DNA of 64,000 nucleotides, taken from positions 31,091-95,090 of the IMG/VR virus record IMGVR_UViG_3300028534_000019. One strand, given 5' to 3'. Below are positions 16,602-17,051 of the stretch, piece after piece. Position 1 is the first letter of the stretch; each line of letters starts with the position of its first letter. The notes beneath the pieces were generated by a model. That model was not told the origin of the DNA. It worked only from the letters and a program-made list of their open reading frames with translations, and searched no databases. Origin of the DNA: a virus. Its lineage: Duplodnaviria; Heunggongvirae; Uroviricota; Caudoviricetes. The position numbers were made by a program, and so were the translations under genes.

Positions 16602-17051
16602 ATGATATATTCAAATAATAAAAAAGTAAAACACGACTATGAAATAATTGAAACATTTGAGGCAGGTGTTGTTTTGAGCGGTCCGCAAGTAAAATCAATT
16701 AGAAAAGGTTCTTTAAGCCTTAAAGGTTCTTATGTTAGTCTTGATGATGGTGTTTTATCATTAAAACAATACTCACTTGCTAGACCTGATTATTTGGATG
16801 CTTTTAGTTCTTTTGATGATAAACCAATAAAATTTTTACTCAAAAAAAGAGAGATTAAAAAATTACAAAAAAAGATTCAAGAAAAAGGTTTAACATTATC
16901 TATAACAAAAGTTTATCAACCTGAAAATACTAGATTTATTAAGGCTGAGTTAGTTCTTGTGAGAGGTAAAAAACTATATGATAAAAGAGAAGATTTAAAA
17001 AAGAAAACACAAGAAATGGATATGAAAAAGGCTATAAAATATGATAGATAA
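16602..17051 (+). CDS. smpB: SmpB (SsrA-binding protein)
   Basis: [41 protein letters not shown]...KKREIKKL...[10 protein letters not shown] aligns along the length of E. coli SmpB. Confidence 0.85.
   Translation: [149 protein letters not shown]

Follow-up and report, generated by a model that had tools for sequence, protein, structure and literature searches.

Can a phage bring its own ribosome-rescue components into the cell that it infects? This question is raised by a 64,000-nucleotide (nt) stretch of viral DNA (hereafter the window; positions 31,091 to 95,090 of IMG/VR record IMGVR_UViG_3300028534_000019, source contig 100,859 bp), in which an initial annotation, made without database searches, had recognized a gene for SmpB and a distant gene for transfer-messenger RNA (tmRNA). 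Bacteria rescue ribosomes mainly by trans-translation, which depends on both and is a target of antibiotics. According to our in silico analysis, the window probably encodes a functional phage SmpB that has long resided in a T4-like, AT-rich phage lineage and that occurs here with a full-length tmRNA, so that the phage would own trans-translation components. The elements concerned are the following:

16602–17051, plus strand: smpB coding sequence, ATG start, 149 amino acids and a stop codon, with a beta-barrel core and a 29-residue basic C-terminal tail.
16593–16597, plus strand: AAGGA, a predicted Shine-Dalgarno-like site 5–9 nt 5' of the smpB ATG, read from the sequence as a consensus match only.
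39452–39772, plus strand: one-piece tmRNA gene of 321 nt, found by ARAGORN and by Rfam RF00023.
39511–39555, plus strand: predicted tag reading frame in the tmRNA (ARAGORN nt 60–104), with resume codon GCA, 14 codons (ANNTDYTGNTVLSA) and a UAG stop at 39553–39555.

The open reading frame (ORF) at 16602–17051 is confirmed as a predicted intact, full-length SmpB. The search with SmpB-family hidden Markov models (HMMs), which the initial annotation had proposed as a check, gave scores above the curated cut-offs of Pfam PF01668 (132.2 bits for a cut-off of 27, with profile positions 2–142 of 143 covered) and of NCBIfam TIGR00086 (126.8 bits, cut-off 119.1), and a third family, NF003843, was passed as well. 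The protein matches solved SmpB chains over its full length, with E=2.1e-30 for the Thermotoga maritima chain 7ljp, and those of Thermus thermophilus, Aquifex aeolicus, M. smegmatis and E. coli also align end to end. An AlphaFold2 model, computed with an alignment of 37 sequences as input, reached a mean predicted local distance difference test (pLDDT) score of 88.4 and a predicted template modeling (pTM) score of 0.72, and presents a beta-barrel core followed by a C-terminal helix at residues 128–148. When this model was compared with the PDB using Foldseek, ranks 1 to 21 were all SmpB, with template modeling (TM) scores, normalized by target, of up to 0.87 and a root-mean-square deviation of 1.8 Å to 1p6v_A, which is SmpB bound to the tRNA-like domain of tmRNA; the first hit beyond the 21 SmpB chains came at E=0.045. 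The claim that the ORF corresponds to SmpB along its whole length thus holds in the family profiles, the solved chains and the fold.

Three motifs at the C-terminus of SmpB, KGKK (from position 131), His136 (for which Tyr also works) and DKR (from position 137), are essential for tmRNA function, and the basic tail of about 30 residues is required for EF-Tu activation and accommodation (PMC4151336). We aligned the phage protein to an E. coli SmpB reference identical to PDB 6q98 chain 5. Its tail reads RGKK-L-Y-DKR, with RGKK in place of K131GKK, Tyr in place of His136 and DKR for D137KR, and contains 12 Lys or Arg among its 29 residues; the conserved tail residues on which the initial annotation had made the assignment depend are all present. 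The N-terminal NKK..H.Y motif and the EAG motif are kept too. The tmRNA-binding surface of E. coli SmpB reportedly includes E31, L91 and K124, according to work by Dulebohn and colleagues from 2006. What we take to be the equivalents of this RNA-binding cluster, E19 (in FEAG), L79 and K114, are all conserved in the phage protein. Residues G122, K123, Y126, D127 and K128 are invariant across the window SmpB, its two nearest relatives (P0002 and P0003) and two SmpBs of huge phages.

The tmRNA that had been predicted in the same phage is present. It scored 90.8 bits with Rfam RF00023 (gathering score 47; E=5e-34) over model positions 1–374, without truncation. Being full length, it is not an attP-type 3' fragment; a search of IMG/VR with a generic pattern for tmRNA 3' ends returned, among the matches listed, many sites at contig ends, which seem mostly att-like. 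The 7-bp acceptor stem (GGGGAUG/CAUCUCC) contains G3-U70, the pair that confers alanine identity; the sequence of the T-arm is CGGG-UUCAAUU-CCCG, and the gene itself encodes the ACCA 3' end. The tRNA-like domain aligns to the Rfam consensus almost base for base with the highest posterior probabilities. In both the minimum free energy and the centroid fold, nt 1–7 pair with 311–317 and nt 32–43 with 277–288; helix 2 contains a perfect 11-bp segment (39484–39494 with 39720–39730), and the folding z-score of −3.96 was better than that of all 100 shuffled sequences. In the Rfam alignment, GCAAACAAC sits on the consensus resume region.

The 19 nt around the resume codon (10 nt upstream and the first three tag codons) are identical in 26 Campylobacter/Helicobacter and 7 Clostridia tmRNAs, while overall identity to these is 55–59% and 50–55%, respectively. 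This level of identity (50–59%) suggests that the phage tmRNA is an old, diverged copy and an uncertain guide to the host. The best cellular SmpB relatives are not Campylobacterota, unlike part of the tmRNA 19-mer matches. By blastn, the tmRNA had no counterpart among 50,697 deposited phages.

An intact pair of genes could nevertheless serve another purpose. Mycobacteriophage DS6A encodes a molecule reduced to the tRNA-like domain, which according to the 2014 tmRNA Website survey probably titrates SmpB (PMC4131195). By this precedent, SmpB or the tmRNA of the window could be a decoy that blocks host trans-translation, and the substitutions of SmpB at several near-invariant positions (see below) would also fit a decaying remnant. 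Both possibilities appear very improbable to us: the tail motifs are complete, the tag frame is intact with its resume codon and stop, and the G3-U pair and the CCA end are all there, although neither a decoy nor a remnant would need them. Moreover, the ORF is intact and the five tail residues named above are invariant even though members of the lineage are only about 49–53% identical. We rejected the decoy and pseudogene readings on these grounds.

We then considered the surroundings of the two genes. Each lies between phage genes on both sides and on the same strand, and nearly all genes of the window are co-oriented. The following structural and packaging genes mark the window as phage DNA, with smpB and the tmRNA gene situated between the terminase on one side and the tail and baseplate genes on the other:

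12055–13872: T4-like terminase large subunit (TerL), ending 2.7 kb upstream of smpB.
49693–53952: tape-measure-like protein.
56365–57435: baseplate hub.
58671–62429: baseplate wedge.

Further T4-type genes in the window are gp32, T4 RNase H, gp15, gp19 and gp25. Since capsid, portal and polymerase genes are absent from the window, the genome must be larger than 64 kb. The smpB gene is packed against its neighbors, with a gap of 9 nt on the upstream side and an overlap of 11 nt on the downstream side, and its composition equals the phage average (GC 26.2% and third-position GC 13.3%, gene means 26.1% and 13.1%).

This arrangement bears on the possibility that the two genes are host DNA, that is, a prophage edge with a bacterial smpB-ssrA pair or an assembly chimera. 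Such artifacts are real elsewhere: ssrA is an integration site, and several phage-labeled records carry host SmpB at the record end, followed by a tmRNA after about 100 nt to 2.4 kb (StauST398-5, with SmpB at 40–462, and the IMG/VR contigs L069, L073, L075 and L116). In the window, however, the pair is internal and 22 kb apart, the GC content is uniform (22–30%) and shared by smpB, and no integrase was found by protein annotation of the window genes. Furthermore, the smpB neighborhood was assembled independently in a second sample (run SRR8439170) and is syntenic in a related contig. A host origin of the locus is therefore extremely improbable, and we rejected the prophage-edge artifact.

We next asked how long smpB has belonged to this phage. 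In a megablast search, no deposited phage matched the 10 kb around smpB. When TerL is compared, the cultured phages closest to the window are Vibrio phages of about 191 kb (41% identity) and Campylobacter CP220-group phages of 158–181 kb (36–39%), and these are absent from the deposited records that tblastn found positive for SmpB. The nearest SmpB proteins, P0002 and P0003, are about 49% identical to that of the window and come from AT-rich contigs with small co-oriented ORFs and a Thg1 gene. The next matches, P0004 and P0007, are ordinary bacterial loci, and the best cellular relatives reach 44–47%. Among the 120 best hits, a YQP[ED] insertion is found only in the window, P0002 and P0003.

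A 96.8-kb IMG/VR contig (L068, IMGVR_UViG_3300026484_000351) proved more informative. Its SmpB carries a YQRE variant of the insertion, which makes the clade pattern YQ[PR][ED], 1–2 residues in length. Together with its extensions L297 and L299, this contig is syntenic with the window from 11 to 34.6 kb, the encoded proteins being 49–59% (TerL), 66% (homologue of the ORF at 14607), 49% (SmpB), 58% (NADAR), 64% (NUDIX), 51% (RlaP), 76% (actin-like protein), 62% (ThyX) and 32% (MoxR ATPase) identical. In a neighbor-joining tree, the SmpBs of the window, P0002, P0003 and L068 form one clade with full bootstrap support (100/100). Huge-phage SmpBs, which share 27–38% identity with that of the window, fall outside this clade, and some of them cluster with P0004 and P0012, both of Bacteroidales type. 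The separate clade and the synteny with L068 indicate that smpB has been inherited within the phage lineage and was acquired independently of the huge-phage copies; judged by these comparisons, it appears to have been there for about as long as TerL has diverged. The SmpB-bearing IMG/VR contigs came from an alignment-based scan, and IMG/VR scans with a single SmpB or TerL protein as query found nothing. TerL of L068 is split in two ORFs (1489–2511 and 3646–4827) with about 1.1 kb between them, probably by an inserted mobile element (intron or homing endonuclease); the TerL genes of the Campylobacter CP220-group phages likewise align as two pieces.

A number of observations weigh against the reading that the phage owns a functional pair. 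The NF003843 score is a marginal pass (130.3 bits for a cut-off of 130, a margin of 0.3 bits). Between the 3' end of smpB and the tmRNA gene lie 22.4 kb, fairly given as 23 kb in the initial annotation. ARAGORN detected no tmRNA in two related SmpB contigs (L002, 11 kb; L005, 3 kb), and ARAGORN and Rfam together detected none in 39 kb of L068 with its extensions (3,632–42,682), a stretch that ends at the MoxR ATPase, about 3–5 kb short of the position equivalent to that of the tmRNA. Another relative, L298 (IMGVR_UViG_3300026512_000087), has no smpB in a 12.8-kb locus that carries homologues of TerL, of the ORFs at 14607 and 15359 and of NUDIX, the latter on the opposite strand. The block from smpB to NADAR is therefore variable among relatives, and smpB is still an accessory gene in this phage lineage. 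The idea of smpB and tmRNA as a dedicated, co-inherited unit is weakened, because SmpB is kept in a syntenic relative with no tmRNA in the 39 kb around it. Contexts of the gene that precedes the tmRNA in the window were also compared:

38175–39122, plus strand: CCA-adding or poly(A)-polymerase-type nucleotidyltransferase with the PolyA_pol head domain (PF01743, E=2e-17); the gene stops 330 nt before the tmRNA.

No tmRNA was found near four homologues of this enzyme in phage contigs; the two closest contigs (53% identity) have the same order of metallophosphatase, small ORF and CCA-type enzyme and end about 0.4 kb past the enzyme gene. A functional link between the enzyme and the 3' end of the tmRNA is hypothetical.

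These data raise the possibility that SmpB is a stably kept gene that mainly serves the host tmRNA, the phage tmRNA being a separate and possibly later accessory. The four related phage contigs with SmpB, in whose examined DNA no tmRNA was detected, and the 22 kb between the two genes of the window are consistent with it. So are the canonical tRNA-like domain and the canonical contact and tail motifs of SmpB, with which cross-reaction with host partners is expected. On the other hand, the stretch examined in L068 stops before the place where a tmRNA would be looked for. In addition, among the matches listed, five distinct IMG/VR loci keep SmpB and a tmRNA less than 10 kb apart, which suggests a functional link: L077 (394 kb), L084 (193 kb), L088/L089 (75 and 248 kb), L102 and L107/L108. 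Four of the five lie amid tRNA genes or arrays, and L084 has none in the stretch examined. We therefore regard a role mainly with host tmRNA as possible but rather unlikely. In the reading that we favor, the phage SmpB would act with the phage tmRNA; given the canonical state of the tRNA-like domain and of the contact and tail motifs, it could very likely use that of the host as well.

Other points on the same unfavorable side concern the sequences themselves. The phage SmpB deviates at 12 positions that are conserved in 86–100% of 36 homologues; in E. coli numbering these include E40 to Q, R86 to K, R88 to I and L90 to F, the last three near the presumed RNA-binding positions. We found no role for the equivalents of E40, R86, R88 and L90 in the SmpB papers that we searched, and we treat the deviations as a caveat, not as evidence of inactivity. 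One-piece tmRNAs typically contain four pseudoknots, the first of which (PK1) lies between helix 2 and the resume codon. In the phage tmRNA this interval, counted from the 5' strand of helix 2, measures only 16 nt, leaves no room for PK1 and appears as a deletion in the Rfam alignment. Finally, the tag ANNTDYTGNTVLSA ends in -LSA, whereas all 33 bacterial tags that we recovered end in -AA or -VA and 52 of 54 short viral tags in -AA.

The compact form of the tmRNA is unusual. Its tag starts at nt 60. In all other one-piece tmRNAs that we recovered, be they the 33 from bacteria, those near viral SmpB genes or the 54 short ones of viruses, the tag does not begin before nt 83. The 54 short IMG/VR phage tmRNAs are likewise one-piece molecules; their tags start at nt 83–98 or later, and no SmpB gene was present in the 54 stretches examined. 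A pattern for the compact architecture without PK1 matched no locus in IMG/VR and, in metagenomes of the Joint Genome Institute (JGI), only four permuted tmRNAs that are unrelated and without similarity to the window. Three tRNA arrays unrelated to the window (L293–L295: Ga0194118_10010942, Ga0194130_10042374 and Ga0194121_10033692), with 9–12 tRNA genes per 3–8 kb, hold a permuted (two-piece type) tmRNA with the tag ANNIVAFSRSN[IT]TALV and look phage-like. In E. coli, tagging is still efficient when pk1 is replaced by single-stranded RNA (PMC4236655), so the missing PK1 need not inactivate the phage tmRNA. PK1 is typical of one-piece tmRNAs but does not strictly define them, and by analogy the compact molecule is plausibly active. 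Proteolytic targeting of products tagged with ANNTDYTGNTVLSA is uncertain, given the lack of PK1 and the -LSA end.

The initial annotation had also considered that SmpB and tmRNA might form a phage-specific pair free of cross-talk with host factors. An orthogonal, co-adapted SmpB and tmRNA, perhaps with a tag of different fate, would agree with the distinct SmpB lineage and its substitutions at near-invariant positions, with the compact tmRNA whose tag begins at nt 60 and ends in -LSA, and with the failure of the pattern searches to find the same architecture in IMG/VR or, apart from the four unrelated permuted tmRNAs, at JGI. Nevertheless, orthogonality needs altered interface residues, and none were identified: the part of the tmRNA that SmpB binds follows the family consensus, and both the presumed RNA-binding positions (E. 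coli E31, L91 and K124) and the ribosome-contacting tail are kept. We thus found no positive support for such a pair, which we judge improbable. The suggestion that the phage would become independent of host SmpB levels is a reasonable possibility.

If the phage-owned components work as in the known trans-translation pathway, host alanyl-tRNA synthetase would charge the phage tmRNA, which has the G3-U pair and the CCA end, and phage SmpB would bind the canonical tRNA-like domain. Host EF-Tu would then bring the complex to ribosomes that have stalled on reaching the 3' end of a broken mRNA, where the basic SmpB tail (RGKK, Tyr, DKR) would fill the empty mRNA channel and license peptidyl transfer. 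Translation would resume at GCA, add ANNTDYTGNTVLSA and end at the UAG stop, which would free the ribosome. T4-like infections degrade host mRNA, and RNA-cleaving defense systems create non-stop mRNAs. The likely benefit to the phage would be extra rescue capacity amid the non-stop mRNAs that arise from host mRNA breakdown and RNA-targeting defenses. A more specific version, in which the SmpB clade and the streamlined tmRNA, without PK1 and with a tag that does not end in Ala-Ala, form a phage-tuned rescue system, seems unlikely to us; in that case ribosomes would be freed while the tagged products avoid host ClpXP-type degradation or meet another fate, maybe alongside DnaK/DnaJ, a second Hsp70 and the CCA-adding enzyme.

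The rarity of a phage-encoded SmpB, as proposed initially, stands in part. SmpB is indeed rarer in phages than tmRNA. Phage-borne one-piece tmRNAs without a known phage SmpB have been described (PMC12484599), including marine T4-like and pelagiphage-type examples, and the accessible part of the 2014 tmRNA Website survey lists phage ssrA in the mycobacteriophage Bxz1 group, in DS6A (tRNA-like domain only) and in Bacillus phage G, with no phage smpB in that part (PMC4131195). However, tmRNAs and SmpB were already reported in huge phages (Al-Shayeb et al., 2020; PMC7162821); the supplementary GenBank files of that work annotate an SsrA-binding protein coding sequence in 8 of the 200 files searched and contain no tmRNA features. 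By tblastn, SmpB occurs in 59 of the 50,697 deposited phage records, among them the 735-kb phage LR756501 and 15 Lak megaphages, but also prophage-edge and unverified fragments. IMG/VR holds at least 49 SmpB-bearing viral contigs, many of 250–508 kb, and the five loci with a nearby tmRNA described above. The pairing of SmpB with tmRNA in phages is thus uncommon but already reported, and the present locus is a further example. Our literature search found no experimental study of a phage SmpB.

Compared with the huge phages (735-kb LR756501 and Prevotella Lak phages), the window similarly has SmpB in a phage genome with other translation or proteostasis genes, including Hsp70/DnaK. In huge phages, though, SmpB typically lies in or beside large tRNA arrays, whereas ARAGORN found no tRNA gene in the window. 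In addition, the phage of the window is T4-like with its nearest cultured relatives at 175–191 kb and a contig of 100.9 kb, and so may not be huge (>200 kb). Bacterial SmpBs (E. coli, Thermus thermophilus, Aquifex aeolicus and Thermotoga maritima) share the length, fold, tail motifs and family HMM scores of the phage protein but lack the YQPE-type insertion and the substitutions at near-invariant positions; moreover, bacterial smpB often adjoins ssrA or rnr (as in L006–L008), which the phage gene does not. Two points are modestly new here: a phage SmpB clade that arose independently and is passed on vertically in a T4-like lineage, and a tmRNA that is naturally without PK1 and has a non-canonical tag end. 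The finding overturns nothing; with it, phages are seen to have acquired smpB a second time and independently, and the gene can evidently pass vertically within a phage lineage. A short intact SmpB from a phage-only clade and a minimal 321-nt tmRNA make the locus a small, manageable case outside the uncultured huge phages.

The interval between smpB and the tmRNA encodes NADAR, DnaK, DnaJ, NUDIX, an RlaP-type nucleotidyltransferase, an actin-like protein, YqeY, ThyX, an SPFH protein, a MoxR-type ATPase with its VWA/metallopeptidase partner, a metallophosphatase and the CCA-adding-type enzyme. The genes in and around this interval that call for comment are:

18640–21305: DnaK (616 amino acids, HSP70 at 765 bits) followed directly by DnaJ (J domain and C-terminal domain).
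39844–41706: a second, divergent Hsp70 just after the tmRNA, of the phage-specific family phrog_22485 (E=5e-121).
18057–18569: NADAR.
21365–21769: NUDIX hydrolase.
4884–5633: Sir2-family protein.
5621–6088: DUF488 protein.
24448–25548: RlaP-type "RNA repair pathway" nucleotidyltransferase of the polymerase-beta family (PF10127; phrog_388).
26665–27576: actin-like protein with ALP_N and an MreB-like C-terminal domain.
33465–34577: MoxR-type AAA ATPase, followed by two small ORFs.
35220–36473: DUF2201 metallopeptidase/VWA-like protein.

As context only, the surroundings of smpB (DnaK/DnaJ, the second Hsp70, the CCA-adding-type enzyme, RlaP-type, NADAR and NUDIX) fit a theme of protein and RNA quality control or of counter-defense. 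No GrpE was seen in the window. In L068, the DnaK/DnaJ pair is missing at the equivalent place, where a Thg1-like gene is found instead. Homologues of the phrog_22485-type Hsp70 among deposited phages are mainly in the SmpB-carrying huge phages (LR7565xx records and Lak). The set formed by NADAR, NUDIX, Sir2 and DUF488 suggests NAD/ADP-ribose metabolism or counter-defense. RlaP-type genes also neighbor CCA-type enzyme homologues in the phage contigs L304 and L305. The actin-like protein is the best-conserved protein common to the window and its relative (76%), which suggests that it may have an important cytoskeletal or segregation role in the phage. The MoxR ATPase and the DUF2201/VWA protein look like a conserved two-gene pair.

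Two further groups of genes lie on the other side of the tmRNA:

46290–47935, minus strand: three tandem paralogous ORFs of about 170 amino acids each, one with a weak match to the gp19 tail tube.
47965–49618, plus strand: two tandem paralogues of a T4 baseplate protein (PF12322).

The region from 46290 to 49618 contains the sole strand switch of the window, and this switch coincides with a reversal of GC skew at 44–48 kb.

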